Positions 6,744 to 47,287 are shown, counted from the first letter of the stretch. The stretch is 64,000 nt of DNA from a virus (IMGVR_UViG_3300012943_000030:43698-107697), one strand, 5' to 3'. Made by a program: numbers and translations. Notes: generated from the letters alone by a model not told the origin.

Positions 6744-6745
6744 AG

Positions 6746-10157: not shown

Positions 10158-10200
10158 TTTCTCGGCAGGCCTAATCAAGTTATAATCAGAGGTATCCGAT

Positions 10201-10344: not shown

Positions 10345-10348
10345 GATC

Positions 10349-11025: not shown

Positions 11026-11031
11026 TAAATA
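11024..11031 (+). promoter_or_regulatory. late-promoter-like GATAAATA
   Basis: Upstream of the membrane-protein gene at 11110. Confidence 0.35.
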
Positions 11032-11109
11032 TCCGCATAGGTTTTGACATCATCTCATAAAGCATACGGGCCACGATCAGTGGTCATTTTCATTCTTTAG
11101 GAGATCATC

Positions 11110-13638: not shown

Positions 13639-14234
13639 CCTCACGAGAGTTTACGCCACGCCACCTCTGTGGTACAATTCTCATCTGCAAAGAGTTCATC
13701 GGAACCGGAACAAGTTGATTATCCCAACGGTCCTAACAGGCCGTCAACATTTCTACTTGTACACCCTTTGTTCCATCCTCTGAACTCTTATCCATAAAGT
13801 TTGACTTAGAAAAGTTGTCTCTGTCCGTAGGTGTTGGTTATCCAATATTACACGGTAGGTTTCAGGAGTGGGCCAGCAGCTCATGAATGAATAGGCGCAT
13901 GTACCGAATTGCATGTGGGTTCTCTTGACCGGTCCAGGCGTATGCCGCAACCACCCAACAAGAGATAGTGCGAGGTAGAACACTCGATATTTGCGGGATT
14001 GAAAACCCGATATTTGCTGGCATGAATAGCCAGATTGGCTACCAATGGCTAAATTCATTTGGTGTAGGAACCAGGCGATTACGAAACCTTCGGGTTAGTA
14101 TCCTTGTGCGGACAGTGAAGCTGTTTGCAGCTGAAGTATCCGAAGTCCCGACATCACCCTTTGTCGGAGACAACCTTTCTAAGTCAAGCTTACTTTGCTG
14201 CCACAAGGCAGCCGTCATCAAGGAGTATCACATC

Positions 14235-15854
14235 ATGGCACGCGCATCTTCAATCTACGTTTCAACGAACACTCGCAAGCTGTCGTCAACTTCGACGCCA
14301 CAGACGCAGGCACTGCCTGGCCGTGAGGACGAGATGGTACGCAACTCGGCAGGCGGAATGACCTTCCAGCTTGACCAGTGGGGCTACCTCGACCGCTTCC
14401 TCATTCTCGGCTCTGAGGCTCCTTCGTACTACGCTTCTGCAAAGAAGCTGACGAAGCTCAACTCAGCCAACCTTCTCGCCTGCATCAAGGCCGATGGTAT
14501 CAAGACCGTCGACCGCATCGTTGAGCTGTCGCTTGCTGGCCGTGCGCCAAAGAACGATCCAGCCGTCTTCGCCCTGGCGATGTGCGCTGTTCATGGCAAC
14601 GAGGCTACCATCAAGGCAGCCTACGAGGCCCTGCCAAAGGTATGCCGCATTGGCACGCACCTTTTCCAGTTCGTGTCTGCGCTCGATGAGCTCGGCAAGT
14701 GGAACGCCGCTGCGAAGCGTGGTGTTGCTGCATGGTACACCAAGCGTGGTGAGGACAAGCTGGCCCTCCAGCTGCTCAAGTACCAGCAGCGCGATGGCTG
14801 GGCGCACCGCGACGTGCTCCGCCTGGCGCACGTGAAGCCGCAGACAGAAGTACAGTCGAACCTCTTCCGCTACGTCGTGAAGGGTTCGGACGGTCTCGCA
14901 GAGGGCTCAGTAGTTCCGCAGCTGGTCAACGACTTCGAGGCGCTCAAGGGTGCCGATGCGAAGAAGGCGATCAAGCTGATCGAGAGCAACGATGCAATCA
15001 CTTGGGAGATGATCCCAACTGAGCTGCAGCGTGATGTGAACGTGATGTCTGCCCTGCTCCCAGGCATGGGTATCACCGCGCTCATCCGCAAGCTTGGTCA
15101 GCTGACGAACGTTGGCGTGATCGCACCGCTGTCGGCCGACGCGAAGACCGTTATCGCGAAGCTGTCTGACAAGGAGCTCATCAAGTCTGGTCGTGTTCAC
15201 CCGATCACGATCCTCAACGCCTTCAACACGTACAAGAAGGGCCACGGCGACAAGGGTTCACTCACTTGGAAGCCAGTGCAGCCAGTTGTTGACGCGCTGA
15301 ACGATGCGTTCTACGAAGCATTCGAGTTCATCGAGAGCACCGGTGAGGGCTACCTCATTGGTATCGACTGCTCGGGTTCGATGTGGTGGGACACCTCGCG
15401 CGTCAAGGGTATGAACCTGACCGCAGCAGAAGTTGCAGCCGTCATGGCGCTTGGTCTTGCAAAGCGTGAGCCGAACCACTGGATCGGCGCATTCGGCACG
15501 ACCATGAAGGAGCTCAAGATCACGCCAAAGATGCGCCTCGACCAGGTGTTGAACGTGATGCAGACTTCGATGATGGGTGGTACGGACTGCTCGCTGCCGA
15601 TGACGCACGCGTCAACTCACAAGATGTCAGGCGTGGACAAGTTCTGCGTGTACACCGACAACGAGACGTACGCTGGTCGTGCGCAGCCGGTGGAGACGCT
15701 GGCTCGTTACCGCAAGCAGTACAACCCGAAGGCGAAGCTGATCGTGTGCGGCGTGGCCGCGACCGACTTCACGATCGCTGATCCGAAGGATCCTGGCATG
15801 CTAGACATTGTCGGATTTGATAGCGCTGCACCGCAGCTCATTCAGTCCTTCTAA
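14235..15854 (+). CDS. Ro60-like TROVE-domain protein with C-terminal vWA domain (Rsr homologue)
   Basis: RBS AAGGAG at 14219. N-terminal TROVE-like region. C-terminal vWA MIDAS DCSGSM and GGTDCS. 539 aa. Confidence 0.55.
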   Translation: MARASSIYVSTNTRKLSSTSTPQTQALPGREDEMVRNSAGGMTFQLDQWGYLDRFLILGSEAPSYYASAKKLTKLNSANLLACIKADGIKTVDRIVELSLAGRAPKNDPAVFALAMCAVHGNEATIKAAYEALPKVCRIGTHLFQFVSALDELGKWNAAAKRGVAAWYTKRGEDKLALQLLKYQQRDGWAHRDVLRLAHVKPQTEVQSNLFRYVVKGSDGLAEGSVVPQLVNDFEALKGADAKKAIKLIESNDAITWEMIPTELQRDVNVMSALLPGMGITALIRKLGQLTNVGVIAPLSADAKTVIAKLSDKELIKSGRVHPITILNAFNTYKKGHGDKGSLTWKPVQPVVDALNDAFYEAFEFIESTGEGYLIGIDCSGSMWWDTSRVKGMNLTAAEVAAVMALGLAKREPNHWIGAFGTTMKELKITPKMRLDQVLNVMQTSMMGGTDCSLPMTHASTHKMSGVDKFCVYTDNETYAGRAQPVETLARYRKQYNPKAKLIVCGVAATDFTIADPKDPGMLDIVGFDSAAPQLIQSF

Positions 15855-16427: not shown

Positions 16428-16640
16428 ATGAAAGTTCACGTTACCTACAAGACCCCTGACGCTGTTCACTTCGGCGTTGTTGACGCCCTCGCCGATGTAG
16501 AGTGTACTCCTGAAGAACGGCGCACAGACTACGAGGACCTCAATGAGGCCGTACTCGCCATACTCGGTTCTGACGAGTACCTCACCGTCATCATCGACAC
16601 TGAAGAGAAGTCGGTCACCTTCAAGAAACCTCACCGATGA
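16428..16640 (+). CDS. hypothetical protein
   Basis: 70-aa acidic ORF ending at ATGA with DHFR. Confidence 0.4.
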   Translation: MKVHVTYKTPDAVHFGVVDALADVECTPEERRTDYEDLNEAVLAILGSDEYLTVIIDTEEKSVTFKKPHR

Positions 16641-17176
16641 AACTCAACATCATCGCCGCCGTTGCGCTCAATGGTGTCATCGGCGACAGCAGAACCAACA
16701 CGATCCCTTGGCACCTGCCCGCGGATCTGTTCAACTTCAAGCGCGTCACAGCTGAGAAGACCGTCGTCATGGGTCGCAGGACCTTTGAGAGCATTGGTCG
16801 TCCGCTGCCAAAGCGCAAGAACATCGTCATCACCTCTGATCCTCAGTTCAAGTGGCGCCACAAGGTCGCAACATTCACCACCCTCGCTGATGCCTTGGCC
16901 CAAGAAGAAGGCGAGGTGTTCGTCATCGGTGGCCAGAAGATCTACGAAGAGGCCTGCTCACTTCGGCCTGACGTGTTCTACATCACGGTCGTCAATGCCC
17001 AACCAGAAGGTGACGTCAAGTTTCCATATGATGGGTGGCAGTTCAAGGGAGGCATCTTCATGCCGATTGGCTGCTCAGCGCTCTACTACAACCGCTACAC
17101 ATCTCCTGAGCTGAACGAAAATGGCTACAGCTACCAATTTACCGAGTTCTCAAAAGATCCTCCGCCTACACCTTGA
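16637..17176 (+). CDS. folA: dihydrofolate reductase
   Basis: IAAVALNGVIG...PWHLPADLFNFKRVT...VMGRRTFESIGRPLPKRKN closely matches E. coli FolA. Confidence 0.85.
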   Translation: MKLNIIAAVALNGVIGDSRTNTIPWHLPADLFNFKRVTAEKTVVMGRRTFESIGRPLPKRKNIVITSDPQFKWRHKVATFTTLADALAQEEGEVFVIGGQKIYEEACSLRPDVFYITVVNAQPEGDVKFPYDGWQFKGGIFMPIGCSALYYNRYTSPELNENGYSYQFTEFSKDPPPTP

Positions 17177-23914: not shown

Positions 23915-24658
23915 ATGCTAGGACTAAGCCTCAAGACCTCGAACGTGCGCGACCTTTTCAAAGCGCTTCTGGAAACCAAACAATTCACCTCTGTCAATCG
24001 CGAGGCCAGCCTCCTAGGTTTTACCGGCGCAACGACAATCGAGATCGTTGGTGCCTCATTCATCGCTGACGAACCATCCATCTTTGGCGAAGTGAACCAT
24101 GACTACGTGCAGCGAGAGGAAGAGTGGTACAACTCCATGTCGCTGAACGTCAACGACATTCCTGGTGGAGCCCCTCAGATCTGGAAGACGGTTGCAGACA
24201 AGGACGGCTTCATCAACTCGAACTACGGCTGGTGCATCTACTCGGCCTCGAACGGCTTCACTCACTACGATGACGTGATGAACCAGCTCATTGACAACGA
24301 CTGTCAATACAACCGCGCCCTCATTGAGCTTCGCAAGAACCCAGAGAGCCGGCGAGCCATGATGATCTACACCCGTCCATCTATGTGGCTGGACTACAAC
24401 AAGAATGGCCGCTCAGACTTCATGTGCACGAATGCAGTGCAATACTTGATCCGCAATGGTAAGCTGCACGCTATCGTGCAAATGCGTAGCAACGACGCGG
24501 TGTTTGGCTACAAGAACGACTGGGCCTGGCAGCACCATGTGCTGACGAAGCTTGCCGCTGACCTTGAAGTCCCAGTTGGTGACATCCATTGGAATGCCGG
24601 TTCACTTCATGTCTACGCCCGCCACTACCACCTCGTAGATCCAAACTACACTGCATGA
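23915..24658 (+). CDS. thymidylate synthase (ThyA) family enzyme (ThyA or dNMP hydroxymethylase)
   Basis: RRAMMIYT..FMCTNAVQYL..QMRSNDAVFGYKNDWAWQHHV aligns with ThyA [38 protein letters not shown] (catalytic Cys retained). Confidence 0.65.
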   Translation: MLGLSLKTSNVRDLFKALLETKQFTSVNREASLLGFTGATTIEIVGASFIADEPSIFGEVNHDYVQREEEWYNSMSLNVNDIPGGAPQIWKTVADKDGFINSNYGWCIYSASNGFTHYDDVMNQLIDNDCQYNRALIELRKNPESRRAMMIYTRPSMWLDYNKNGRSDFMCTNAVQYLIRNGKLHAIVQMRSNDAVFGYKNDWAWQHHVLTKLAADLEVPVGDIHWNAGSLHVYARHYHLVDPNYTA

Positions 24659-26803: not shown

Positions 26804-28496
26804 CCGCCTCGGCTTCAAGCCAAGAGCTGGACAGCTAGAAGCTGTCAACAGCATCCTTGAGGCCTTCATTGACGAGAAGGCCAAAAACGTCATCCTCAAC
26901 GCCTCAACCGGCACAGGCAAGTCCATCATTGGTGCAGCAGCCGCCGAGGCCCTGACTGCCGCCCGTGGTGCGCCAGACAACTCGATCAAGTCGTCCATCT
27001 CGCTGACAGCCACCAACGTTCTCGCAAAGCAGTACGGTGCCACGTTCGCTGAGCTTGAGAAGTACGGCAAGTACATCATGATCAAGGGCGCCAGCAACTA
27101 CGATTGCGACGCCCTCTCAACGCCAGCCGAGCCCACCTTCGCCGACGCCTGTGCCTGGTTCACGATGATCAAGGATAAGTCCTTCGAGGCCACCCTTCAG
27201 AGCACCTGCAACCAGTGCGAGTACCTGAAGATCAAGCAGAAGAAGAACCTGGTTCGCCACCTCACAACGAACTACTCATACTACTTTGTTGACCGCATGT
27301 ACACGGGTAAGTTCGAGAACCGCGACCTCATCGTCTGGGACGAAGCTCACCTTGTCAATGATCTATTCAGTGAGCACAACGCCATCTACTTCTCACAGAA
27401 GCGTATGCAGCAGTTCGCCGAGGAGATCAACACGACCGTCGGCTTGACTGACGTGAAGATAGCCAAGCTGCTGCAGTCCCTCGCGAAGGACTGTGGTACG
27501 CCAGGCAAGATCACTGAGGTCAACTACAAGGCCTACCTCAACGCCCTCATGGAGGTCTACACCTACGCGAAGGAAGCAGGACAGGCTGCAGCGCAGACGG
27601 CGCTCAGCTCGGGCCACCCGCAGAAGTACACGAAGCTGACGCGCTTTGCCAAGAAGTACGAGGGCCTCTGCTGCAAGATTGACGACCTCTTCAACTACGA
27701 CTACGAGCACGTGTTCGAGTACAAGGAAGAAGACAAGGCCGTCTCCATCAAGCCGATCTTCGTCGGCTCAATGATCGAGGCGCTGCAGTCAGCTGATCAC
27801 AACCTCTTCATGTCGGCAACGGTCTCAGAAGAGTTCATGGTGAAGACCCTGAACCTCGACCCGGCGCAGACGAAGTTCATCAAGCTGCCACCATCATTCC
27901 CGAAGGAGAACAAGGAGGTCGTGTTCTTCGACCCGCTCTCGCTCGGCTACAAGTCGCTGCAGGACCCGAAGGTCGTTGCTCAGCTGCGCAAGAACGTGGC
28001 GAAGGTCGTCAAGCACCACGTTGATGCTGGTGATCGCGGTATTATCCTGACGCCAAGCTTCAAGCTGCAGAACGAGATCGTGGCAGAGATCATCAGCGTC
28101 AAGGGCTACAAGCTGTTCGAGCATCGTCAAGGCGAGAAGCTTGAGCACATCCTCACGGCGTTCAAGTCGTATGCTGGTGGCCCAGCCGTGCTGATCTCAC
28201 CATCCATGTTTGAAGGCATCGACTTGCCAGGCGACCTTTCACGGTTCCAGGTGTTGGTGAAGGCGCCGTTCCCATCGCTTGGCGACAAGCGCATGAAGTT
28301 CATTCTTGACAAGCACCCGTCCATCTACAACATCATCACCGTGATGAAGGCAGTGCAAGGTGCTGGCCGTTCTGTCCGCTCAGCTGAGGACCACGCCACC
28401 ACGTACTGCATGGACGCTAACCTTCAGCGCCTGTGGACTGGCCACTTCAATGTGTGGAAAGACGAGTTCAACACGAGGTTCACCAAGTTCCTATGA
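26769..28496 (+). CDS. DinG/Rad3-family ATP-dependent DNA helicase
   Basis: Walker A NASTGTGKS, DEAH box VWDEAHLVND, C-terminal helicase motifs (VLVKAPFPSLGD, QGAGRSVRS). Confidence 0.7.
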   Translation: MKYLSQTTAAFDRLGFKPRAGQLEAVNSILEAFIDEKAKNVILNASTGTGKSIIGAAAAEALTAARGAPDNSIKSSISLTATNVLAKQYGATFAELEKYGKYIMIKGASNYDCDALSTPAEPTFADACAWFTMIKDKSFEATLQSTCNQCEYLKIKQKKNLVRHLTTNYSYYFVDRMYTGKFENRDLIVWDEAHLVNDLFSEHNAIYFSQKRMQQFAEEINTTVGLTDVKIAKLLQSLAKDCGTPGKITEVNYKAYLNALMEVYTYAKEAGQAAAQTALSSGHPQKYTKLTRFAKKYEGLCCKIDDLFNYDYEHVFEYKEEDKAVSIKPIFVGSMIEALQSADHNLFMSATVSEEFMVKTLNLDPAQTKFIKLPPSFPKENKEVVFFDPLSLGYKSLQDPKVVAQLRKNVAKVVKHHVDAGDRGIILTPSFKLQNEIVAEIISVKGYKLFEHRQGEKLEHILTAFKSYAGGPAVLISPSMFEGIDLPGDLSRFQVLVKAPFPSLGDKRMKFILDKHPSIYNIITVMKAVQGAGRSVRSAEDHATTYCMDANLQRLWTGHFNVWKDEFNTRFTKFL

Positions 28497-28972
28497 CCAT
28501 CGCAATCTACCCAGGTACCTTCGACCCGATTACCAACGGCCACCTCGACATCGCCATACGCGCAGCCGAGATGTTTGATAAGGTCATCGTCGCCGTCCCA
28601 GAGAAAAGCTCTAAGAACACCATGTTTAGTTTTTGTGAGCGTGTTGCTCTTCTAGAAGCTGTCTTCGCTGATGTACCAAGAATTCAGGTACACGGCTATG
28701 ATGGTCTGACTGCTGCGCATGCCAAGTTCAACGGCTGTTCAGCCATGATCCGTGGTCTGCGCGCCACATCTGACTTCGAGTATGAGTTCCAGCTGGCTCA
28801 CATCAACCAGCACCTAGCACCATGGCTCGACACCGTTCTTCTGCCAGCCAGAACTGATCACACGTTCATCTCGTCAACGATGATCCGTGAGATGATCCGC
28901 TATGGAACCGACATCAGCCCATTTGTACCGCCAGCCGTAGCTGCTGCCGTAGCGGCCAAGCAAGGAGCATAA
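28493..28972 (+). CDS. coaD: phosphopantetheine adenylyltransferase
   Basis: MTIAIYPGTFDPITNGHLDI and the rest of the 159-aa protein match CoaD. ATGA overlap with the helicase. Confidence 0.8.
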   Translation: MTIAIYPGTFDPITNGHLDIAIRAAEMFDKVIVAVPEKSSKNTMFSFCERVALLEAVFADVPRIQVHGYDGLTAAHAKFNGCSAMIRGLRATSDFEYEFQLAHINQHLAPWLDTVLLPARTDHTFISSTMIREMIRYGTDISPFVPPAVAAAVAAKQGA

Positions 28973-28973
28973 G

Positions 28974-29270
28974 ATGAATTCATTGAAACCATTTCTGAGG
29001 TTTGTGACCCGTGGTGGTGAGAACGGCAAGGTCGACCTCATCATTGGTACGACGTTCAAGGGAACCGACTGCCCGCTCAAGCCAGACACGACATACGAAA
29101 TTCGCGACATCATGGACGAGCTCGTGATCATGGAGGTTGGCAAGAGCGCGATGGATGAAAAGATGTGGGGGCATGACGTCAGCTCTCTCATCGAGTGTTA
29201 CAAGTCGCGCCTGTTCCTCACTGAGGCTGAGTACAAGCGCGCCTGCGAAAGCGGAGCTGCCAAGGAATGA
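28974..29270 (+). CDS. hypothetical protein
   Basis: 98 aa. Confidence 0.45.
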   Translation: MNSLKPFLRFVTRGGENGKVDLIIGTTFKGTDCPLKPDTTYEIRDIMDELVIMEVGKSAMDEKMWGHDVSSLIECYKSRLFLTEAEYKRACESGAAKE

Positions 29271-29593
29271 AGGTCTTCATTTCAAGCCCATACAGCGGCG
29301 ATGTGACCGGCAACATCAAGCGCCACATGGACGCTGCTGACAGCTTGATGAACCTCGGGTACATACCGTTCATGGGGCTGCTTGTGCACTTCCATGACAT
29401 CGTTCACCATCGTCCGTATGAGGACTGGTTGAAGTACTGCATGGCGTGGATTGAGGAGTGCGACTGCGTCCTTCGTTTACCTGGCGCATCTTCTGGCGCC
29501 GACGCTGAAGTTGCTCGTGCCCATGAGCTTGGCATTCCAGTGTTCACGTCAATTCCTGACCTCGTCAGGTTGAGCGGAAAGGTTGTATCTTGA
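29267..29593 (+). CDS. hypothetical protein (nucleoside 2-deoxyribosyltransferase-like fold?)
   Basis: 108 aa, MKVFISSPYSGD... pattern. Weak. Confidence 0.4.
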   Translation: MKVFISSPYSGDVTGNIKRHMDAADSLMNLGYIPFMGLLVHFHDIVHHRPYEDWLKYCMAWIEECDCVLRLPGASSGADAEVARAHELGIPVFTSIPDLVRLSGKVVS

Positions 29594-29610
29594 GACAAGC
29601 AGGTGATACT

Positions 29611-29730
29611 ATGGAGCAATCACAATTACGCGAACGACGCCGACAGAGGGCTGAGTTCGTCATGAGCCTCATCAGAACGGTGGCTGCTGTGATCGCTGCA
29701 ACCGCTCTGATCATCTCACACTGGAAGTAA
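29611..29730 (+). CDS. small TM protein
   Basis: 39-aa ORF with basic N terminus and one hydrophobic helix, directly before the kinase gene. Confidence 0.2.
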   Translation: MEQSQLRERRRQRAEFVMSLIRTVAAVIAATALIISHWK

Positions 29731-29731
29731 C

Positions 29732-30310
29732 ATGACACCACAAGTATTCGGCATCGAAGGTCTTGACCGCCTTGGGAAGAGCACGCTCATCCAAGGTATC
29801 ATGGACAAGCTTGGCTTCTATCAGGTGGTCCACTTTGCGAAGCCGCAACGCCTGAAGATCTACGACAGCGCTATCAGGGAGCACGGCATCCCAGAGGGGT
29901 CGCAGTCAGCGTATCTCTACCAGGCAGAGAGCTTCCGCAACTCAATGCTGCTTGCCAACTCTGGCGCTCGCATCATCTTCGACCGCTGGCATATCGGTGA
30001 GGTTGTCTACTCACCAATGTACCGCGGCTACAGCGGTGACTACGTGTACCAGCAGGAGCTGAACACGCGGCTCGACCATCACCCGAGCCTGCGACTGATC
30101 CTCCTCATCGAGGACTTCAAGAGTGCCCGCCACTTCATCGATGATGGGCAATCGCTAGGCCCAATCGAGAAGCGTGAGGAAGAGCAGGGTCGCTTCATCG
30201 CCGCTCTCGAGCGCTCAAACATCAAGGACAAGCGCCTCGTGGTAGTCACCAATCCGAAAACCGGTGGCTTCCATTCGAAGGAAGAAATTCTCGAGTGCGC
30301 GCTGTCATGA
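29732..30310 (+). CDS. thymidylate kinase-like dNMP kinase
   Basis: P-loop FGIEGLDRLGKST (cf. Tmk xIEGxDGxGKST). 192 aa. Confidence 0.6.
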   Translation: MTPQVFGIEGLDRLGKSTLIQGIMDKLGFYQVVHFAKPQRLKIYDSAIREHGIPEGSQSAYLYQAESFRNSMLLANSGARIIFDRWHIGEVVYSPMYRGYSGDYVYQQELNTRLDHHPSLRLILLIEDFKSARHFIDDGQSLGPIEKREEEQGRFIAALERSNIKDKRLVVVTNPKTGGFHSKEEILECALS

Positions 30311-30525
30311 GCTCCAAGCTGACCCTCACCCAGGCGCTCTGCATCACCCACGCTGGCTGGATCACTGAGGCTGAGCACACTCTGTACCTTGAGGCTCAAT
30401 CGCTGGTCTACAAGGAGGCGCGGCGCCACAAGATCGATCGTGAGATCGAAGCGCTGACGTCTAACAACCAAGAAAAGCTTGAGGCCCTACGGAAGGAACG
30501 GGCTGATCTAGGAGAAGCCTCATGA
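30295..30525 (+). CDS. hypothetical protein
   Basis: 76 aa. Confidence 0.35.
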   Translation: MRAVMSSKLTLTQALCITHAGWITEAEHTLYLEAQSLVYKEARRHKIDREIEALTSNNQEKLEALRKERADLGEAS

Positions 30526-30854
30526 GCTTCAATGACCGCCCAATGCACCTCGGAGATCTCAAGATCTGCCGCAAGCACGCCCACACAGACAACAGCGTGA
30601 TCGTCCCAGTGTGGATCACGCAGTCAAATCTCGATGGACTTCAGGCCCTCATTCACGTGGTCGAGGGAATGAACCGCGATGGCAAAGGTCAGCTGTCTGG
30701 TTCCTTCGAGCTCGTCATGTTCTACCGCAACCTCGTCAACTGTATTCGCGAGGCTGAGCGAGTAGCGGTTGAAGAAGCACCAGATACACCAGCCCCAGAG
30801 CAGCGGGTGGCGCCAGCGGCGGGCGTCAACGCTCATGGTCAGCGAGACGGTTAA
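30522..30854 (+). CDS. hypothetical protein
   Basis: 110 aa. Confidence 0.4.
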   Translation: MSFNDRPMHLGDLKICRKHAHTDNSVIVPVWITQSNLDGLQALIHVVEGMNRDGKGQLSGSFELVMFYRNLVNCIREAERVAVEEAPDTPAPEQRVAPAAGVNAHGQRDG

Positions 30855-30883
30855 GTACTGATCCACCCGCGGTCGGATGCTCG

Positions 30884-30890
30884 GTAAATA
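30884..30890 (+). promoter_or_regulatory. late-promoter-like CGGTAAATA preceded by shared element ACTGATCCACCCG
   Basis: The same two-part element recurs at 34530-34566. Confidence 0.35.
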
Positions 30891-30918
30891 ACCCGTCCCA
30901 CTTGGAGCATAAAGAATA

Positions 30919-32088
30919 ATGAAGAAGATCCTCATCACAGGGTTCAACAAAAACCAGTGCACGCGTAAGTTCTACCTGCGCCAGCAGCTCAAGGTTGTTC
31001 CATCACACTACTCGCTCTTCAACTGCCTGACGGCAATGGAGTACGAGGTAGAGCAGCGGCAAGTGACGCTGGGTGAAGACCTCAGCGGCTATGATGAGGT
31101 GATCGTCTTCATCGCTGGTCCGCGCCAGCTTGTCGCCACTACCGTGTTCGAGGGGCTATGGGCCATCTCGCAGCGCCCAGATTGTATCCTTGCCTTCGAC
31201 GACTGGCAGGTGCCAGATCTTTTCAAGGGCGTTGCCAAGTGCGAGGACTGGAGCGAGCTCTCAGCTGACTTCATTCTCGGTGTCAACAAGAAGACTGACG
31301 CGGACCTCGAGCCGTACCAGAACCAGCTGCTCGCGGCCATTAAGGTGATCACGGCCAAAAAGAACCGCATGCTTATCAGCGCGTTCCGCACTGAGCACCT
31401 CAACGACGCGGCCAACTTTGGCCCACAGCTGCTGTTCGACAAGATTGATTACCCTCGTGATCGTCTGTTCGTCTACAACCCGAACCCATACCATCGCAAC
31501 CGCACAAGCACCGACGCGCTGCATGAAGGCGCCGAGGACCCAACGTGGAACCCACCGATGGACCTTCTTTTCCAGAAGGCACCACCTCCGCTCCACAAGG
31601 AACGTCGCTTCAACTTCGCCAGCCTTGTACAGTCGAAGACGCAGAAGTGGCTCAAGAAGCAGGGCTACACGGGCAATCCAAAGAACGACGAGGAGGGAAC
31701 TATCGGCGAATGGCCAGTAGACCTCTACGGCTCAAAGGCCGAGACGCAGAAGCGCCTGACTGAGGACGAGATGGTCCTAGTCATCAACCGAGATTGGGGC
31801 TGCCTCATGCCAGGCTATGAGCATGCTGGTTCTGGCTGGTGGAGAGCACGCCCACTGCAGTGCGCTGATGCCCACAGCATCCTCATTGGTGATAAGAAGG
31901 AGCTCGCTGTTTACTACGGCGCCGACTTCCCATACCTTGATCTGACTGCTACTGACATCACTGAGGCCACAGACTATGAGCTGGCACAGATCGCCGTTGC
32001 TCAATCACAGGCGCTCTACAGGCTCCACCCGCTCGACAAGCTGCCACAGCAGGCAGAACTCAACGCCATTCTGAGGGCACAGAAATGA
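30919..32088 (+). CDS. hypothetical protein; possible GT-B DNA glucosyltransferase-like (T4 bgt-like N terminus)
   Basis: N-terminal MKKILITGFNKNQ and YDEVIVF resemble T4 beta-glucosyltransferase MKIAIINMGNNV / YDRLIVV. 389 aa. Lies next to glf. Confidence 0.4.
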   Translation: MKKILITGFNKNQCTRKFYLRQQLKVVPSHYSLFNCLTAMEYEVEQRQVTLGEDLSGYDEVIVFIAGPRQLVATTVFEGLWAISQRPDCILAFDDWQVPDLFKGVAKCEDWSELSADFILGVNKKTDADLEPYQNQLLAAIKVITAKKNRMLISAFRTEHLNDAANFGPQLLFDKIDYPRDRLFVYNPNPYHRNRTSTDALHEGAEDPTWNPPMDLLFQKAPPPLHKERRFNFASLVQSKTQKWLKKQGYTGNPKNDEEGTIGEWPVDLYGSKAETQKRLTEDEMVLVINRDWGCLMPGYEHAGSGWWRARPLQCADAHSILIGDKKELAVYYGADFPYLDLTATDITEATDYELAQIAVAQSQALYRLHPLDKLPQQAELNAILRAQK

Positions 32089-33113
32089 AGATCTTGATAG
32101 TTGGAGCCGGACTTGCTGGTGCTACAGTTGCCCGCGTTCTCGCCGATGCTGGTCATGAAGTGAACGTCATTGACAAGCGAGGCCACATCGCCGGCAACGC
32201 CTATGACTTCACCAATGAACACGGCATCCGCGTTCACAAGTATGGCTCACATATCTTTCACACGAGCAATGACGAGGTCTGGAACTTCCTGAACCGCTTC
32301 ACATCGTTCGAGCCATACAAGCACAAGGTGAAGGCGCTACTGGCCGATGGTCGCTACGCCACCCTGCCCGTCAACCGCGAGACGAAGGCAATGGTTGGTG
32401 AGGAGAACGTTCTCGACATCTTCTTCAAGCCGTACACCCTCAAGATGTGGGGCATGCCGCTCGAAGCACTAGACCCATCAATCATCAAGCGCGTTCCAAT
32501 CCGCGATGACGACAATGAGTTCTACTTTCCGAACGACACGTACCAGGGTATGCCCACAAATGGCTACACGGCCATGGTTGAGAAGATGCTGGACCATCCA
32601 AGCATCTTCGTCAAGACCGGTTGCACGTTCAGCAAGATATTCGAAGGTATGTTTGACCACATCTTCAACTCAATGCCGATCGACGAGTACTACGATTTTG
32701 AGTTCGGCGAGCTACCGTACCGCTCGATCAAGTTCACTACGTTCGACCTACCAATGTCGCGCGTGCTGCCGACACCCGTCGTCAACTTCACCCACAACGG
32801 TCCGCACACCCGCATAACCGAGTGGAAGAACTATCCAGTTCACGGCAAGAACGATAGCATCACCACGCTGACGCTTGAAGAACCGTGTGACTACCGCTAC
32901 AACAACAAGGAGCGGTACTACCCGGTCAAGGACGTTGACGGAAAGAACCGCGAGACGTACAAGAAGTACGCGGCTATCCCAAATGAGAAGACGACGTTCA
33001 TTGGTCGCTGTGGGCAGTACGTCTACATCGATATGCACCAAGCAGTTGGCAGCTCGCTAGCCACCGCCAAGAGGTTCCTGCGTGAAAAAGAAGAGCTTGC
33101 TGTCGCGAGCTGA
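32085..33113 (+). CDS. glf: UDP-galactopyranose mutase
   Basis: MKILIVGAGLAGATVA...IDKRGHIAGNAYD...HKYGSHIFHT...ELPYRSIKF...HTRITEWK align along the full length with E. coli Glf. Confidence 0.85.
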   Translation: MKILIVGAGLAGATVARVLADAGHEVNVIDKRGHIAGNAYDFTNEHGIRVHKYGSHIFHTSNDEVWNFLNRFTSFEPYKHKVKALLADGRYATLPVNRETKAMVGEENVLDIFFKPYTLKMWGMPLEALDPSIIKRVPIRDDDNEFYFPNDTYQGMPTNGYTAMVEKMLDHPSIFVKTGCTFSKIFEGMFDHIFNSMPIDEYYDFEFGELPYRSIKFTTFDLPMSRVLPTPVVNFTHNGPHTRITEWKNYPVHGKNDSITTLTLEEPCDYRYNNKERYYPVKDVDGKNRETYKKYAAIPNEKTTFIGRCGQYVYIDMHQAVGSSLATAKRFLREKEELAVAS

Positions 33114-33378
33114 ACTTGACGCCTGCGCCGCCTGCATAGAAAACTTGCGCATCATCCGCAAGTTCAGGAAGGATGCTGAGTGGCTTCCGATCAATCCAGA
33201 GGACGTGCTTGCACTTCTGCCTCGCACCATTAGCGATGAAGCGATTTACAGAACGTGTTACAATATGTTCGTCCGCATTCAATGGTCATGCTCAGTGAAG
33301 CAGGACCGAACGTGGCTGCCAGTCATTGCTGACCTGCAGGCGCTCATGATGTGGCCAATCTCAACAGAACAAGCATGA
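33082..33378 (+). CDS. hypothetical protein
   Basis: 98 aa. Confidence 0.35.
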   Translation: MKKKSLLSRAELDACAACIENLRIIRKFRKDAEWLPINPEDVLALLPRTISDEAIYRTCYNMFVRIQWSCSVKQDRTWLPVIADLQALMMWPISTEQA

Positions 33379-33887
33379 AGCCGCGCTACACAAAGCAAAG
33401 AACCAAGAGCGACTGCGGGCCGGTCGCCATCCTGAACGTCATCAAGTGGGCTGGCATCAGGGCCACGTATGGTTCATCCATTGAGTACATAAAGAGCATG
33501 GCACGTTATCGGCATACTGAGGACTTCTCAGGTACCCACCAATGGGACCTGCGCCGCGCCCTCAACCGTATGAGCCGTGGTAGACTGAAGACGCGAACTA
33601 TCCCAGTCGTGCACCTCGACCAACTGACTAAGCACATCAACGCAGATGGTGCTTTCATCCTCTATCATGCTATGAGCGACAGCGACGCCCACTACACGAC
33701 GGTCGTGAAAGGCGAGGATGGTAAGTTTGACTGGATCAACATGGGTCCAGCCACAGTCATCTCGATTACGCCAGAAGAATTCGAAAAGAAGGTCATGTCA
33801 ACACAGCGCCTACACGATCAGGTCGTTGCGCTCCTCATCAAGAAGACACCAAAGCTATGCAGCCACACGTCACGAAGCCGGTCCTGA
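33351..33887 (+). CDS. hypothetical protein (papain-fold/C39-like cysteine peptidase?)
   Basis: KSDCGPVAILNVIKWAG resembles the Cys motif of C39-like peptidases. A downstream His is present. Confidence 0.35.
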   Translation: MANLNRTSMKPRYTKQRTKSDCGPVAILNVIKWAGIRATYGSSIEYIKSMARYRHTEDFSGTHQWDLRRALNRMSRGRLKTRTIPVVHLDQLTKHINADGAFILYHAMSDSDAHYTTVVKGEDGKFDWINMGPATVISITPEEFEKKVMSTQRLHDQVVALLIKKTPKLCSHTSRSRS

Positions 33888-34513
33888 TCACCTTCACCTC
33901 GCCGACCTGCTCAGGTAAAAGCTACCTGCTCAGCTACATTCGAGATGTTGCTAAGCTGCCATGCTTTGTCTCCACCACCACCCGCCCGCAGCGCAGAGGT
34001 GAGGTTGATGGCGTCGACTACTTCTTCATCACCGATGAGCGCTCAAAGGAAATTGAAGCAGCAGATGGTTTCGCCGAGCTCATGACGTTCCGAGGTTTCC
34101 GTTACGGTGTTACCAAGGAAGAATTCAAGAAGAAGCTGGACATGGGAATGGCCTTCCTCGTGGTAGAACCCGAGGGTATCCATCACTACGCGAAGCCAGC
34201 TCTCGATGTCGGTGCTCTGTGGATCAAGTATTTTGTGGACGTGCCACAGGAAGTACGCATCAAGCGCTTCAAGGACCGCTTCATCAAGGACGCAATTGAC
34301 TGCGTGGAGCCGATCTCGCTCAGCAAGGTCATTGACAACTACCTCAACCGCTTTCAGAGCATGCTCGGACCAGAGACGCGCTGGAAGGCGATGCACGAGT
34401 GGGACGACATCCTCGACGGCGAGCTCGACCCAGAAAAGAACCTTGACAGGATCAACACTGATGTCGCTAAGGTTCGCATTCATGATGCGATTTACGGACC
34501 ACAGACTGGATGA
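33857..34513 (+). CDS. guanylate kinase-like nucleotide kinase
   Basis: TSPTCSGKSYL, VSTTTRPQRRGEVDGVDYFFI and EF..GFAE motifs match Gmk. Confidence 0.6.
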   Translation: MQPHVTKPVLITFTSPTCSGKSYLLSYIRDVAKLPCFVSTTTRPQRRGEVDGVDYFFITDERSKEIEAADGFAELMTFRGFRYGVTKEEFKKKLDMGMAFLVVEPEGIHHYAKPALDVGALWIKYFVDVPQEVRIKRFKDRFIKDAIDCVEPISLSKVIDNYLNRFQSMLGPETRWKAMHEWDDILDGELDPEKNLDRINTDVAKVRIHDAIYGPQTG

Positions 34514-34593
34514 CGTTTATAGACTGATCCACCCGTGATCCGGTGCGGGTCTCACCACCGGTAAATACATGCACAACGAGAAAAATAACAAGC

Positions 34594-35205
34594 ATGACTA
34601 CCAAGACATTTTGGATTGATGACATCAAGGACCTACACACCAAGTTTGGTGTTCGTGAGGTCATTGAAACCCTCTCACCAGAGAACCTCAAGGCCTTCAT
34701 TGACTTCCGTCTGAAGTTTCTTCAAGAGGAGCTTGACGAAGCCAAGGAAGCTACAGAGGCTGAGGACGTCGTTGACGCAATGATCGACCTTTGCGTCGTT
34801 GCGATCGGCACCCTCGATGCTGTCGGCGTTGACAGCCAGATTGCCTGGGACCGCGTTCACAAGGCCAACATGTCGAAGCAGCGCGGCATCAAGAAAGAGC
34901 GGCCAAATCCGCTCGGTCTGCCAGACCTCATCAAGCCAGAAGGCTGGACGTCACCGCAGCACTACGACAACACCGGTATCTTGATGCGCACCTACGGTGT
35001 CCCAACGAAGTGGATCAAGCAGGTGGACTTTTCCTTTGGCACTTCATCTGAAGCTCGCGTTGAGTGGATCGATAAGTTCACCGGCAAGAAGACTGTTGAG
35101 GTCATTCGCGGTAATGATGACATCGCGCTCATCACGAAGATGATGCTTGAGCAACAGAAGCTTGTTGAAGCTCAACCGCTACCAGAGGCCAGCAATGGAA
35201 ATTAA
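34594..35205 (+). CDS. MazG-like nucleotide pyrophosphohydrolase
   Basis: EELDEAKEATEAEDVVDAMIDL (EExxE...D metal-binding helix pair). Late-promoter motif at 34559. Confidence 0.55.
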   Translation: MTTKTFWIDDIKDLHTKFGVREVIETLSPENLKAFIDFRLKFLQEELDEAKEATEAEDVVDAMIDLCVVAIGTLDAVGVDSQIAWDRVHKANMSKQRGIKKERPNPLGLPDLIKPEGWTSPQHYDNTGILMRTYGVPTKWIKQVDFSFGTSSEARVEWIDKFTGKKTVEVIRGNDDIALITKMMLEQQKLVEAQPLPEASNGN

Positions 35206-35371
35206 GATCAAGCACGACGATGGTGAGTACACCATCCCAGTCAAGGTTGAGGTGCCATCATTTGCTTGCACCATCAGCTTCACGATGGAAACCCTTCAGG
35301 ACCTCATCGCCGCAGCAAAGGCTGGCGGCATGAACATCGAGCTTACAGGCCCTGATCGTCGCCATCTCTAA
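35195..35371 (+). CDS. small hypothetical protein
   Basis: 58 aa, overlaps the mazG-like stop. Confidence 0.3.
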   Translation: MEIKIKHDDGEYTIPVKVEVPSFACTISFTMETLQDLIAAAKAGGMNIELTGPDRRHL

Positions 35372-35457
35372 CGATTTGAAGCAAGCTGCTTCAAACAGTG
35401 TCGCCTAGGCGGCCTGAATTTTGAAAATCGATGCATAAGAAATAGGAGTTAACTCAC

Positions 35458-35733
35458 ATGTCCAAGTCAATCGCAACTGCACAGCGCTCGAAGGCTTACA
35501 AGGCTCTTCTCGCTGCTGGCCTCAACGACGTGACGACCGATCGCCAGGCTGCCAATGGCTCACTCGCCTTCACTGGCAAGTTCAAGGCTGGCCGCAAGAC
35601 GATCCGCCCAACGTACGTTGTGACCGCCGCTGGCGCCGTCATCAGCAACGAGTTCGTTGCTCGCAATGTCGACACGTACAGCGAAGGCTTCCAGGCCGTC
35701 GCAGAGCTTCTGACCAAGCGCCTCGCCGCCTAA
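35458..35733 (+). CDS. small abundant-type protein (own RBS and strong terminator)
   Basis: RBS AGGAG. 91 aa, Ala/Lys-rich. Confidence 0.45.
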   Translation: MSKSIATAQRSKAYKALLAAGLNDVTTDRQAANGSLAFTGKFKAGRKTIRPTYVVTAAGAVISNEFVARNVDTYSEGFQAVAELLTKRLAA

Positions 35734-35774
35734 GTCAAGAAGTCCATTTAACCTGTAATCTTCAGGTTGAAACC

Positions 35775-35810
35775 AGGGCACCTAGCGCAGGTTAGGTGCC
35801 CTTAGTTTTG
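35775..35810 (+). terminator. rho-independent terminator
   Basis: AGGGCACCTAGC-GCAG-GTTAGGTGCCCT followed by TAGTTTTG. Confidence 0.55.
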
Positions 35811-35862
35811 TCTCAGGTTTGTGCATGATAGAATGTCCTCATTGTTTGTATCGGAGGTTCGT

Positions 35863-36150
35863 ATGATACTTCTTCGCCTGTTGGCCATTCTTCTGATTTT
35901 TGGCCTGGTCGTTCTGCTCGTGTTGCAGGTCATTCTCCCGGCCATCGATGGTAGGAAGTTGTTCCCGGCATTTCGCAAGAATGAACTTGCACGCGCCGTC
36001 GAAACTACACGCGACGAGGTGGAAACACTTCGTGAGCACAACGCGAACCTCTCTGAACTGACACGATTGCAGGAGCAGAAGCGCGCCCTCGAGGAAGTCG
36101 CTGCACCTACTTCTGCTGCCGAACCAGCCGCAGAAACGAAGTCCGAGTAA
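35863..36150 (+). CDS. membrane protein with C-terminal coiled coil
   Basis: RBS GGAGG. MILLRLLAILLIFGLVVLLVLQV TM helix. Confidence 0.45.
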   Translation: MILLRLLAILLIFGLVVLLVLQVILPAIDGRKLFPAFRKNELARAVETTRDEVETLREHNANLSELTRLQEQKRALEEVAAPTSAAEPAAETKSE

Positions 36151-36186: not shown

Positions 36187-37434
36187 ATGGTTGATGCTGT
36201 AAATAATTTGGCTCGTAGAGGCATGCTGGTAATCGTTGCCGTTGTTGCAGCGATACTGGTGGGCATCTACACGCTCACGCAGATGTGGGTCGATGTCGAC
36301 GCCAGCGAGATCGTAGTCGTGCAGGCGCCGATCAGCGGCAAGCTTTCGGTGTACGTTGATCCGGGCTGGAAGTACCAGGGGTTCGGAACGGTCACTCGCT
36401 ACCCACGTCGCGCGCAGTTCGCCTTCCTCGTCAAGCGTGAAGGTGAAGCTCATCGTGAAACTGACGAGAGCATTGCAACTCGCTTCAACGACGGCGGCCA
36501 CGGCAACATCTCTGGCTCCATCAACTGGGCGATGCCCCTGTCGCCGGACAAGGTGATCGCGCTGCACAAGGACTTCCGCGGCTTCGAGGCCATCGAGCAG
36601 CAGCTCCTGCGCCGCGCCGTTCAGAAGGTCGTGTTCAACGTCGGCCCAACGATGTCCTCAACTGAGAGCTCAGCTGAACGTCGCCCTCAGATCCCGACGT
36701 ACATCGATGACCAGCTCGAGAATGGCCCATACTTGACGAAGACGGTGCAGCAGGTCGTGAAGGACCAGATCACCGGCCAGGACAAGCAGGCCAACATCGT
36801 GATCATCGCCACTGACGACACTGGCAAGCCGGTTCGTGAGGCTGTCTCGCCGCTCACCAACTACGGTCTGCAGCTGCAGCCGGTGTCCATCGAGGACATC
36901 AAGTACGATCCAGTCGTTGAGAACCAGATCAAGCAGCGCCAGGACGCGACGACGCAGGTGCAGATCAGCATTGCGAACGCTCGTAAAGCTGAGCAGGAAA
37001 CCATCACGACCGAACAGCAGGGTAAGGCCGCTGCTGCAAAGGCCAAGTGGGAGCAGGAGACCATCAACGCCAAGGAAGTGGCCGAGGCCGAGAAGAACAA
37101 GCAGATCGCCCTGCTTGCAGCTGAACAGGCCGTCGAGTACAAGCGCAAGCTGATCCTCGAAGGTGAAGGTGAAGCCAAGAAGCGCGAGCTGATCCTGAAC
37201 GCCGACGGCGCCCTCACGCAGAAGCTTGAAGCCTATGTGAAGGTCAACACTGCCTACGCGAATGCCATCAGCACGGCTCAGCCGGGCGCATGGACACCTT
37301 CGGTGATCATGGGTGGTGGCTCTGGCAAGGATATGGGTTCAGCCCAGGCCCTGGTTGAACTGCTCACATCGAAGACTGCCAAGGAGCTTGGCACCAGCCT
37401 CGATATTGAGCGCGGGACCTCTGCTAAGAAGTAA
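36187..37434 (+). CDS. SPFH/band-7 (prohibitin/flotillin-like) protein
   Basis: N-terminal TM helix, SPFH core, and long Ala/Gln/Glu-rich coiled coil (AKWEQETINAKEVAEAEKNKQIALLAAEQA). Confidence 0.7.
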   Translation: MVDAVNNLARRGMLVIVAVVAAILVGIYTLTQMWVDVDASEIVVVQAPISGKLSVYVDPGWKYQGFGTVTRYPRRAQFAFLVKREGEAHRETDESIATRFNDGGHGNISGSINWAMPLSPDKVIALHKDFRGFEAIEQQLLRRAVQKVVFNVGPTMSSTESSAERRPQIPTYIDDQLENGPYLTKTVQQVVKDQITGQDKQANIVIIATDDTGKPVREAVSPLTNYGLQLQPVSIEDIKYDPVVENQIKQRQDATTQVQISIANARKAEQETITTEQQGKAAAAKAKWEQETINAKEVAEAEKNKQIALLAAEQAVEYKRKLILEGEGEAKKRELILNADGALTQKLEAYVKVNTAYANAISTAQPGAWTPSVIMGGGSGKDMGSAQALVELLTSKTAKELGTSLDIERGTSAKK

Positions 37435-45693: not shown

Positions 45694-46476
45694 ATGAAAT
45701 TTGCCTTTTGCATCTCAGGACAACCACGAACTTGGAAGAAGTGCTACAAGAGCTGGTATCAGCTCTTCGATCGGTTCGGCAGCGTTGACACATTTCTCCA
45801 TGCCTGGGACTTCAACAGCCAAGCCCGCTACAAGGCAGAGTACGTCGACAATGAACCCAAAGAAACTCCTGTTCCAAAGGAAGAGCTGAATGAGATGCTT
45901 GCCGCGCTTCAGCCAAAGAAGTTTATCATCGAGAGCAAGCGCGATGTGGAGCTCACCTGTGCCACTGGCCGAACCATTGCGCCGTACGCTCATCCACAAT
46001 ACTACGGTATTTGGAGAGCTGCTCACCTCAAGCGCCAGTATGAGATCGAGAACGATTTTCAGTATGATGTTGTTGTTCGGCTGAGGACTGACCTTCTGCT
46101 GCCGCAGCAGTGGGAACCGCTCTCAGCGAACCTGAGGTTTGATCCTTTAATTCTCATGGGAACGCCGCCAAATACCATCTTCACGGCGCAGAATGTTTTC
46201 ACACCTGGTGTTGGTCACCGCGTTAACGACATGTTCTTTTTTGCAGACAGCCTAACATACGATCATGCGGCTGCGTTCTACACAAGCTTCACCTACATAC
46301 AAGAAGACGTTGCTGTCCCACAGCAGAAGGATTACCCACCAGAGATGGCGCTCTACTTCTACTTTGCATCACTTGGCATTACCAACGTTGCTATGCCAAT
46401 GCGCGAGATAAAGATCATGCGTGATGAAGAGCACCTCCACCGCGTCGGCGAGCTGCAGAACTATGAAACAGCTTAA
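45694..46476 (+). CDS. uncharacterized family A protein (transferase-like; SGQxRTW / FxHxWD motifs)
   Basis: Shares N-terminal CISGQPRTW...FLHAWD and mid YDVVVRLRTD blocks with the ORFs at 46463 and 53280. Confidence 0.5.
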   Translation: MKFAFCISGQPRTWKKCYKSWYQLFDRFGSVDTFLHAWDFNSQARYKAEYVDNEPKETPVPKEELNEMLAALQPKKFIIESKRDVELTCATGRTIAPYAHPQYYGIWRAAHLKRQYEIENDFQYDVVVRLRTDLLLPQQWEPLSANLRFDPLILMGTPPNTIFTAQNVFTPGVGHRVNDMFFFADSLTYDHAAAFYTSFTYIQEDVAVPQQKDYPPEMALYFYFASLGITNVAMPMREIKIMRDEEHLHRVGELQNYETA

Positions 46477-47287
46477 CGTCGCAGTCTGTGTTTCAGGCCA
46501 ATCACGCACATGGCAGGCCGGGCTCGGGTACATGAAGGCATTCTTCAACTCACCACGCTGCAACGTGAAGTTCTTTGCTCACACGTGGGATGAGAACCAC
46601 TACAAGCAACCAGGACATGCTAAGGGCTGGAAACCATTTATTGAGGTGAAGCTAAACGCCAAGGTGCTAAGGCGTCAACTACTTGCGGCCGATGTCCGTT
46701 TTGAAGAACTCGTTGTTGATAAGCAGATCGCACCTCGAGAACAAACAACACGCACTAACTCCACGTATTTCACATCCTGGGCACCGATGTTTAAGAGCGC
46801 GGCGCTGTCGATGGCCATGAAGACGCGTTATGAAGTAGAAAACAACATGACGTTTGATGTAGTTTTCAAGACACGCTTCGACGTTGCCTATGATCCGAAT
46901 TTCACCGTTGAACACTACATTCCGGTTGACATCATCCCTGACGGCATCTATGTTCACACGACTAATTTTCAGAGTGAGTTTAGAATGCCCGTGCTCAGCG
47001 ATATTGCGTACTACGGATCATCAAGGGCGATGAACGTCCTTGACAGCTTTTGGTTCTACTACGACAATGGTCGCTTCCTTGAGATGCTTGACTATTCAGA
47101 CTACAACAGGGCGTACGATCTCGTCGGCCCTGGCGTGCTGCTGTACAAGTGGGCTACCATGAAAAACTTGAAGATCATCTCAAACCTTAGGCACTTCAAC
47201 CCGGTTCCAATACGTGCCCATGTGGCCGACGCCTTCCACCCCGACGGATACAAGCGCATCATCAATGCATACACGGACAACGAATGA
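46463..47287 (+). CDS. uncharacterized family A paralogue
   Basis: VCVSGQSRTW..FFAHTWDENHYK. Confidence 0.5.
   Translation: MKQLNVAVCVSGQSRTWQAGLGYMKAFFNSPRCNVKFFAHTWDENHYKQPGHAKGWKPFIEVKLNAKVLRRQLLAADVRFEELVVDKQIAPREQTTRTNSTYFTSWAPMFKSAALSMAMKTRYEVENNMTFDVVFKTRFDVAYDPNFTVEHYIPVDIIPDGIYVHTTNFQSEFRMPVLSDIAYYGSSRAMNVLDSFWFYYDNGRFLEMLDYSDYNRAYDLVGPGVLLYKWATMKNLKIISNLRHFNPVPIRAHVADAFHPDGYKRIINAYTDNE

Follow-up and report, generated by a model that had tools for sequence, protein, structure and literature searches.

A predicted phage pathway to galactofuranosyl-5-hydroxymethylcytosine, with a Bgt-fold glycosyltransferase paired with UDP-galactopyranose mutase

In phage T4, 5-hydroxymethylcytosine (5hmC) is made before replication and the sugar, drawn from the UDP-glucose of the host, is transferred to it in the DNA after replication. 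Here we describe a gene set for which the same division of labour is predicted, found in a 64,000-nucleotide stretch of viral DNA (IMGVR_UViG_3300012943_000030:43698-107697, hereafter the window). Its core in the window consists of three genes, which we name by their first nucleotide: those for a ThyA-family enzyme (23915), a 389-residue glycosyltransferase (GT, 30919) and a UDP-galactopyranose mutase (Glf, 32085). In relatives the set is enlarged by a GalE-like epimerase, or a dioxygenase of the Tet/JBP type is used. With moderate confidence, we propose that the window encodes a cytosine hypermodification pathway ending in galactofuranose on 5hmC.

Several other described systems are close to this one. 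Phage-made UDP-galactofuranose (UDP-Galf) was proposed in 2026 for the galactosyl-5-hydroxycytosine DNA of Rhizobium phage RL38JI (PMC13326640); there, and in Pootjesviridae, the phage Glf is proposed to supply UDP-Galf for the base-proximal galactose on cytosine, as we propose for the window. In the full-text literature, the RL38JI paper was the only one found to link a phage Glf to DNA hypermodification. The ThyA homologues of RB69, DLP3 and RL38JI, which have Asn at the position of E. coli ThyA residue 169, make 5-hydroxy-dCMP (PMC13326640), and in RL38JI the sugar is joined by an ether linkage directly at C5. RB69 and DLP3 resemble the predicted system in placing a furanose on a C5-modified cytosine and in encoding the synthesis of the donor, but their base is 5-hydroxycytosine (5hoC), their sugar is D-arabinofuranose derived from ribulose-5-phosphate rather than galactofuranose obtained via a mutase, and their GTs are GT4-like and unrelated in sequence to that of the window. 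A survey of 2023 described GT-B enzymes resembling the T4 beta-glucosyltransferase beside ThyS or TET genes, sometimes with an epimerase (bioRxiv 10.1101/2023.12.21.572611). Finally, Petrov et al. (2010) found genes 42 and 56 and no recognised glucosyltransferase in phages 44RR, 31 and 25 of Aeromonas (PMC2993671), and left open whether Hm-dCMP is further modified in them (PMC2993671).

The ThyA homologue of the window is of the T4 type. It is 52-58% identical to gp42-type enzymes (58% to T4 gp42 in the alignment), compared with 23% to RB69 gp48 and 19% to RL38J1 gp216. Its motif MRSNDAVFGYKND matches MRSNDVVFGFRND of T4 gp42, with an identical active-site signature, whereas RB69 gp48 and RL38J1 gp216 have RSQN. 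At the positions of C146, L143, D169 and N177 of E. coli ThyA it has Cys, Asp, Asp and Asp, respectively, which are all the residues expected of the gp42 branch of dCMP hydroxymethylases. In ThyA, the choice of substrate is set by N177, where Asp goes with specificity for dCMP, and L143 tracks whether a hydroxymethyl or a methyl product is formed (PMC13326640). An earlier note on this DNA had suggested that the homologue helps to build a modified pyrimidine, a view that would fall if the residues specific to thymidylate synthase were all retained and the phage DNA were unmodified; the residues are not all retained, since both 143 and 177 are Asp. Because Cys146 is accompanied by Asp at 143, 169 and 177, the enzyme is predicted to be a dCMP hydroxymethylase and the acceptor to be 5hmC, not 5hoC. 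We infer from these residues that it makes 5-hydroxymethyl-dCMP. A 5-hydroxy-dCMP synthase of the RB69/RL38JI type was considered and ruled out by Asp, instead of Asn, at 169.

The product of gene 32085, which the earlier note had called an unmistakable UDP-galactopyranose mutase (UGM) lying immediately downstream of the 389-residue protein, bore out that description and is a UGM by homology. It matches the GLF family over the full domain and NAD_binding_8, the Rossmann motif for flavin adenine dinucleotide (FAD), at 5e-19; the D. radiodurans UGM (3hdq) aligns with it at 1.7e-66, and 13 UGMs in the PDB match at E <= 7e-47. Seven residues that we take to be the substrate-binding positions of the D. 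radiodurans enzyme (Tyr179, Trp184, Arg198, Arg305, Tyr335, Arg364 and Tyr370) are all identical in the window protein when aligned with 3hdq, and N372 is replaced by Asp. In the window the start codon of glf overlaps the stop codon of the GT gene (ATGA). To our knowledge, supplying UDP-Galf is the sole established role of the UGM family, and we know of no galactofuranose in mammals and of little outside cell surfaces.

Sequence comparison said little about the 389-residue protein itself. No Pfam match at E <= 0.01 and no NCBIfam match were obtained, a PDB sequence search with the profile of its family returned neither a GT nor any solved relative, and there was no significant match to GT63 or to the Pfam T4 beta-glucosyltransferase family. 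BLASTP found no match to T4 Bgt and none of significance to RL38J1 gp215 ('galactosyltransferase 1', E 0.89); significant similarity to T4 Agt was likewise lacking. By hhalign, residues 2-68 of the family profile pair with residues 1-69 of Bgt at about 31% identity (E 0.002, probability 13-14%). A local hhalign run with a deeper alignment gave no gain over that E-value; thus the homology to Bgt rests on fold, not on sequence. At the fold level, by contrast, T4 Bgt is matched strongly. The top match in the fold search was the T4 DNA beta-glucosyltransferase (1c3j), with a score of 17.7 over 285 aligned residues; the T4 alpha-glucosyltransferase ranked fourth (15.9) and the DNA glycosyltransferase of phage HY126 sixteenth (14.5), and the remaining high matches were GT-B enzymes whose substrates are lipids and small molecules. 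The closest entries in BFVD were uncharacterised viral proteins of the same family; rank 6 was a 351-residue entry, the length of T4 Bgt, and the glycosyltransferase of Bacillus phage SP-15 appeared lower down. The resemblance of the N terminus to Bgt, remarked on in the earlier note, is therefore real, weak in sequence and strong in fold, and the GT fold whose absence would have spoken against a glycosyltransferase is present.

The modelled architecture is that of a GT-B enzyme with two Rossmann-like domains, closest to Bgt (T4 beta-glucosyltransferase family, CAZy GT63). Among the residues invariant up to the most distant members of the family are D95, R309, R311, Q314 and E328; the last four lie in the C-domain, and D95 directly follows the fourth strand of the N-domain (strand 90-93). 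Asp95 is the probable catalytic base, at the position of Bgt Asp100, an equivalence taken from the order of the secondary-structure elements and not from superposition. A low-confidence extension of the hhalign alignment pairs R311 and Q314 with R269 and E272 of Bgt, which bind UDP. From the fold, the invariant residues and the gene linkage described below, the GT would act on 5hmC in DNA as T4 Bgt does.

The GT family is large and is annotated as 'hypothetical' nearly everywhere. We collected 647 metagenomic homologues and confirmed 160 relatives among IMG/VR viral contigs, and the family divides into 6 clusters when grouped at 55% identity and into 12 when grouped at 70%. Gene linkage was examined in 80 IMG/VR loci with GT homologues at 43-86% identity, in annotated phages found by tblastn and in three contigs from metagenome-assembled genomes (MAGs). 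In 80 of 83 loci the gene directly downstream of the GT, in the same orientation, is Glf, counts of this kind being inflated by related contigs; in one of the three exceptions the contig ends 407 bp past the GT. Upstream of the GT, 68 loci have a ThyA-family gene in the same orientation, often adjacent, and 67 of these 68 carry the gp42 signature. The hydroxymethylase gene thus precedes the GT gene in the window as in T4, where the order is 42 then beta-gt. Unlike in T4, the GT is coupled to an enzyme that makes its donor, Glf, joined in relatives by a GalE-like one. Unlike in RL38JI, where Glf lies about 60 kb from the GT, the two genes adjoin in the window, and no GT of the gp215 type was found beside the ThyA homologue there.

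The GT-Glf pair occurs in at least seven phage lineages, including jumbo phages, T4-like Aeromonas and Erwinia phages and a freshwater actinophage. Carriers in the Straboviridae are the Aeromonas phages 25, Aes508 and phiAS4, Stenotrophomonas phage IME13 and Erwinia phage FBB1. In these the order is reversed, Glf then GT, beside motA, and the gp42 gene, with the T4 signature, lies elsewhere in the genome; phage 25 and FBB1 carry a T4-type gp42. In phage 25 the pair is an accessory cassette annotated 'not conserved in 44RR2.8t', and it is a concrete candidate answer to the question of how the DNA of this phage is modified. In the actinophage DSL-LC01 the GT is followed by Glf, then by another GT-like gene and by MazG, all within a DNA-replication block. 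The product of that second GT-like gene (L097 7145-8134), annotated as a 'hypothetical protein', resembles, by eye, a very divergent paralogue of the GT family ('...FWWSPRYAQALAACTPVV...' versus 'GWWRARPLQCADAHSILI') and was missed by tblastn; it suggests a two-step glycan in that phage.

These arrangements bear on the identity of the donor. It is conceivable, though rather unlikely in our judgement, that the GT is a DNA 5hmC transferase using a pyranose donor (UDP-Glc or UDP-Galp) while Glf serves a second transferase, which extends the glycan or works elsewhere. T4 Bgt, the closest solved fold, takes UDP-glucose, the DNA galactose of RL38JI is extended with glucoses by several GTs, DSL-LC01 has its second GT-like gene beside Glf, and the window covers only 64 kb of a genome that measures 198 kb or more. 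Against this, the scan of about 40 window ORFs (open reading frames) found no second GT, nor a GalE or TET, in most loci the cassette has just one GT, set between Glf and a GalE-like enzyme or beside them, and the genes for GT and Glf overlap in the window.

Of 87 loci, 68 have a gene for an NAD-dependent sugar epimerase next to the GT-Glf pair, where it immediately precedes the GT or immediately follows Glf. Those of the upstream type match GalE (TIGR01179) best, at 201-229 bits compared with 50-71 bits for the next family, although the trusted cutoff of 262 exceeds all of them. The same evidence helps in judging whether the sugar might be another one. UDP-L-arabinose is a side substrate of bacterial UGMs, and a homologue from Campylobacter accepts UDP-GalNAc; the modification could accordingly be real with the mutase converting UDP-L-arabinopyranose to UDP-L-arabinofuranose, or acting on a UDP-GalNAc-type substrate, so that another furanosyl base results, but we give this a very small chance. 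Besides the side activities, what speaks for it is that the window Glf lacks about 40 residues that bacterial UGMs have in the helical domain (the gap between residues ~101 and 108 corresponds to residues 129-170 of the D. radiodurans enzyme) and that its TIGR00031 score, 288.3 bits, is just under the NCBIfam equivalog cutoff of 303.75. Phage C48C1, a carrier of the pair, also encodes a UDP-glucose dehydrogenase and a second enzyme of the short-chain dehydrogenase/reductase class, and arabinofuranosyl cytosines are known in RB69 and DLP3. On the other hand, the adjacent epimerases match GalE by a wide margin, the residues taken to contact galactose and UDP align as identical, and in none of the loci examined does a pentose-pathway gene lie beside the pair.

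The pair is not tied to a single source of the hydroxymethyl group. The complete genome of C48C1 has no ThyA-family gene; instead, a Tet/JBP dioxygenase (PF12851, 62.6 bits) lies directly upstream of its GT. The MAG contig L089 has an operon in the order Tet/JBP (85.9 bits) - GalE-like - GT - Glf. These two cases indicate that two biochemically unrelated routes to hydroxymethyl-pyrimidine feed the same GT-Glf pair. The order Tet/JBP - epimerase - GT - Glf of C48C1 and L089 fits the 5mYOX/TET or ThyS clusters with GT-A or GT-B enzymes of the 2023 survey, but its text names no mutase or furanose donor, while the GT-Glf pairing is the most conserved feature here; the window, from which Tet/JBP is absent, takes the ThyA-homologue route and not the TET one. 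If C48C1 has no C5-cytosine methyltransferase, its dioxygenase may work on thymine in the manner of JBP, and the product would then be a base-J-like galactofuranosyl-5-hydroxymethyluracil (galactofuranosyl-5hmU).

The same linkage argues that DNA is the target. If the pair instead glycosylated virion proteins, or host lipopolysaccharide (LPS) or capsule for superinfection exclusion, its proximity to nucleotide genes would be incidental; this we regard as decidedly unlikely. The top fold match is a DNA GT, several lineages link the pair to gp42-type enzymes or Tet/JBP dioxygenases, both makers of hydroxymethyl-pyrimidines, and the pair sits in early or replication blocks rather than structural ones. 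The GT family is also essentially absent from cellular genomes: a search of one genome per species for 185,579 species returned only the three MAG contigs, all with phage synteny, which answers the suggestion that Glf might accompany capsule or LPS genes in relatives. No such context was found around Glf in the relatives examined, where its close partner is the GT and a gp42-type enzyme or Tet/JBP is linked to both.

The proposed pathway would run as follows. The gp42-type enzyme would convert dCMP to 5-hydroxymethyl-dCMP (5hmdCMP), which phage or host kinases, the Tmk-like and Gmk-like kinases of the window being candidates, would raise to the triphosphate, while a MazG-type pyrophosphohydrolase may deplete the competing canonical deoxynucleoside triphosphate (dNTP). 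The phage polymerase would then incorporate the 5hmC made before replication. Glf would convert host UDP-galactopyranose to UDP-Galf, and in most relatives the GalE-like epimerase would make UDP-Gal from UDP-Glc. The GT, translationally coupled to Glf, would finally transfer galactofuranose from UDP-Galf to the hydroxymethyl group of 5hmC in DNA, giving beta-D-galactofuranosyl-5hmC if it inverts like Bgt. The expected benefit is protection against restriction, CRISPR and defences tuned to glucosyl-hmC.

A number of points weigh against this pathway. No characterised DNA GT, Bgt included, matches the GT significantly in sequence; the Asp95 assignment, the shortened Glf with its score below the cutoff, and the relatedness of the contigs counted, all mentioned above, belong here too. 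Five loci for which 3 kb or more of upstream sequence is available (L022, L023, L025, L029 and L062) lack both a ThyA homologue and TET. No local epimerase is present in the window or in L007, its closest relative. In C48C1, where Tet/JBP accompanies the GT-Glf genes (L001 6580-7998; L092 33480-34364), the sole annotated DNA methyltransferase is a Dam-type, D12-class N6-adenine enzyme, and so the acceptor in that phage may be 5hmU and not 5hmC.

The earlier note held that galactofuranosylated DNA bases had not been described. The RL38JI proposal predates our analysis and partly pre-empts that claim, but the 5hmC variant differs from it in both the base and the GT. What is new here is a family of DNA GTs and a predicted combination of sugar and base, not a categorically new mechanism. 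We lean slightly towards there being a new base, D-galactofuranosyl-5hmC (possibly a galactofuranosyl-5hmU in relatives like C48C1), made by a Bgt-fold GT family that is obligately paired with Glf in these lineages. Such a base would widen the range of sugars that phages set against restriction, CRISPR and type IV systems specific for glucosyl-hmC, and would explain how DNA modification is completed in gene-42 phages without a known glucosyltransferase, of which Aeromonas phage 25 is one. Since the GT family is abundant yet invisible to sequence annotation, its recognition allows many phage genomes to be re-read as hypermodified. The plugging of one GT-Glf pair into either the ThyA-homologue or the Tet/JBP route suggests that hypermodification pathways are assembled from interchangeable parts. 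The presence of the cassette in the five cultured Straboviridae phages makes the proposal directly testable, and a DNA GT specific for galactofuranose could serve for selective labelling of 5hmC.

The genes of the pathway and the candidate accessory genes are listed in Table 1. All ORFs named in the earlier note were confirmed on the + strand at their coordinates, the dihydrofolate reductase (DHFR) and the ThyA-family gene among them, and gene calls made independently on the source contig (ENA ERZ27256383, k141_234680, 198,078 bp) agree with them.

Table 1. Genes of the predicted modification pathway and candidate accessory genes in the window
Feature	Position	Strand	Remarks
ThyA-family, gp42-type dCMP hydroxymethylase (predicted)	23915..24658	+	247 aa; Pfam Thymidylat_synt, 50 bits only
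Tmk-like P-loop nucleotide kinase	29732..30310	+	192 aa; Thymidylate_kin 28.9 bits (cutoff 27); phrog_761 1e-11
Bgt-fold GT-B glycosyltransferase, candidate DNA 5hmC galactofuranosyltransferase	30919..32088	+	389 aa; phrog_14998, function unknown
UDP-galactopyranose mutase (Glf)	32085..33113	+	342 aa; PF03275 1e-52 and FAD Rossmann domain
Guanylate-kinase-like P-loop kinase	33857..34513	+	218 aa; Guanylate_kin 5e-13; phrog_1815 3e-26
MazG-type all-alpha NTP pyrophosphohydrolase	34543/34594..35205	+	220/203 aa; PRA-PH 6e-8; phrog_671
Dihydrofolate reductase	16637..17176	+	179 aa; DHFR_1 2.7e-42

The earlier note had grouped the GT and Glf with the two kinases as a four-gene module. The GT and Glf stand as its core, to which the ThyA homologue has to be added, and the kinases are lineage-specific. 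Of the 83 loci, only 11 have the Tmk-like kinase in synteny, namely the closest jumbo-phage relatives, where it lies upstream of the GT, and L069, L072 and L076, where it abuts the ThyA homologue; it is also present on two MAG contigs. Its family profile aligns with RB69 p045 (124 columns, E 1.8e-5), a Tmk-like kinase beside the GT and ThyA homologue of RB69, and not with the T4 gp1-type kinase. A Tmk-like kinase beside a GT and a ThyA homologue is thus a feature shared with RB69 and DLP3, and we infer that the window enzyme is a candidate kinase for the modified deoxynucleoside monophosphate (dNMP). The Gmk-like kinase was found downstream of Glf in 7 close relatives only, out of the same 83 loci, and its top PDB matches are guanylate kinases, down to 2e-10; it is a lineage-specific accessory with a plausible role in raising 5hmdCMP. 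A T4 gp1-type dNMP kinase was tried as an identity for either kinase and rejected, as neither had a PDB match to 1dek/1del or similarity to RL38J1 gp219.

The top PDB match of the MazG-type protein is DR2231, a MazG-like dUTPase. It is 33% identical (E 3e-18) to RL38J1 gp218, which lies inside the cytosine-modification cluster of that phage; in RL38JI, as in the window, a Tmk-like kinase and this MazG-type protein are found close to the GT and the ThyA homologue. In 45 loci a homologue precedes the GT by 3.5-7.4 kb, and in DSL-LC01 one is encoded two genes after the pair. A gp56-type dCTPase was rejected because the protein has no similarity to gp56, so that the window differs from T4 in having a DR2231/MazG-like pyrophosphohydrolase instead of gp56 and Tmk- and Gmk-like kinases instead of a gp1-like one. 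The protein is a candidate dCTP/dUTP-clearing enzyme. Together, the kinases and MazG appear to be lineage-specific accessories with plausible roles in 5hmdCMP phosphorylation and dNTP clearing. DHFR is not syntenic with the GT in the IMG/VR relatives and is best seen as peripheral support of the folate cycle, outside the cassette.

Two further genes lie just upstream of the Tmk-like kinase. The protein at 29267-29593, of the DUF4406/DUF7768 type and directly upstream of the kinase, is syntenic in L007 only and matches, at 9e-23, a PHROG with the annotation nucleoside 2-deoxyribosyltransferase. Its substrates could come from the (deoxy)nucleotide pools, as they would for a dNMP N-glycosidase, and it might be part of the modification pathway. 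At 28433-28972 is a cytidylyltransferase-like protein (PF01467, 2e-25), also kept in L007, whose N-terminal PGTFDPITNGH resembles phosphopantetheine adenylyltransferase (CoaD), which is unusual in a phage. Between Glf and the Gmk-like kinase, a 178-residue ORF (33351-33887) gave no family match; it holds an 'SDCGPVAILN ... H' pattern that recalls papain/C39-like cysteine peptidases, and it is 80% conserved, in L007 only. About 1 kb downstream of the MazG gene is an SPFH/Band-7 protein (36187-37434). In Gordonia phage Mareelih, which has a distant GT homologue, a band-7-like protein (L098 8454-9314) is likewise encoded in the vicinity of the GTs, together with a dUTPase and a large tRNA array; the band-7 neighbourhood common to both may be coincidental or recurrent.

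The window belongs to a large phage, as indicated by its 29 tRNA genes, a Ro60 orthologue, a topoisomerase II and relatives on contigs of 292-358 kb. A megablast search of window positions 29000-36000 against 50,697 phage records gave no match; at the level of DNA similarity, therefore, the lineage has no close cultured relative. A promoter and terminator scan of the region returned sites no more frequently than expected by chance. The 29 tRNA genes are densely arrayed on the + strand at 1567-7412 (ARAGORN; Rfam also recovers 27 of them), with isoacceptors repeated (Lys x4, Arg x5, Gln x3), and some ORFs called greedily across the array overlap tRNA genes and are probably spurious. The Ro60 orthologue, at 13968-15854, has a TROVE domain (2.7e-32) and a Ro60 vWA domain (4e-55); no Y-RNA family scored above the Rfam gathering score anywhere in the window, and its partner RNA, if any, is thus unrecognised or encoded elsewhere. 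In the phage contig from a Bacteroidetes MAG, L089, a protein with a Druantia DruA domain (PF14236, 9e-12) is encoded directly downstream of Glf (10060-11184), so that a defence-system component adjoins an anti-defence DNA-modification operon. The adjacent paralogous ORFs 45694-46476 and 46421-47287 of the window both match phrog_13607, of unknown function (1e-16 and 1e-5, respectively), and look like a tandem duplication.

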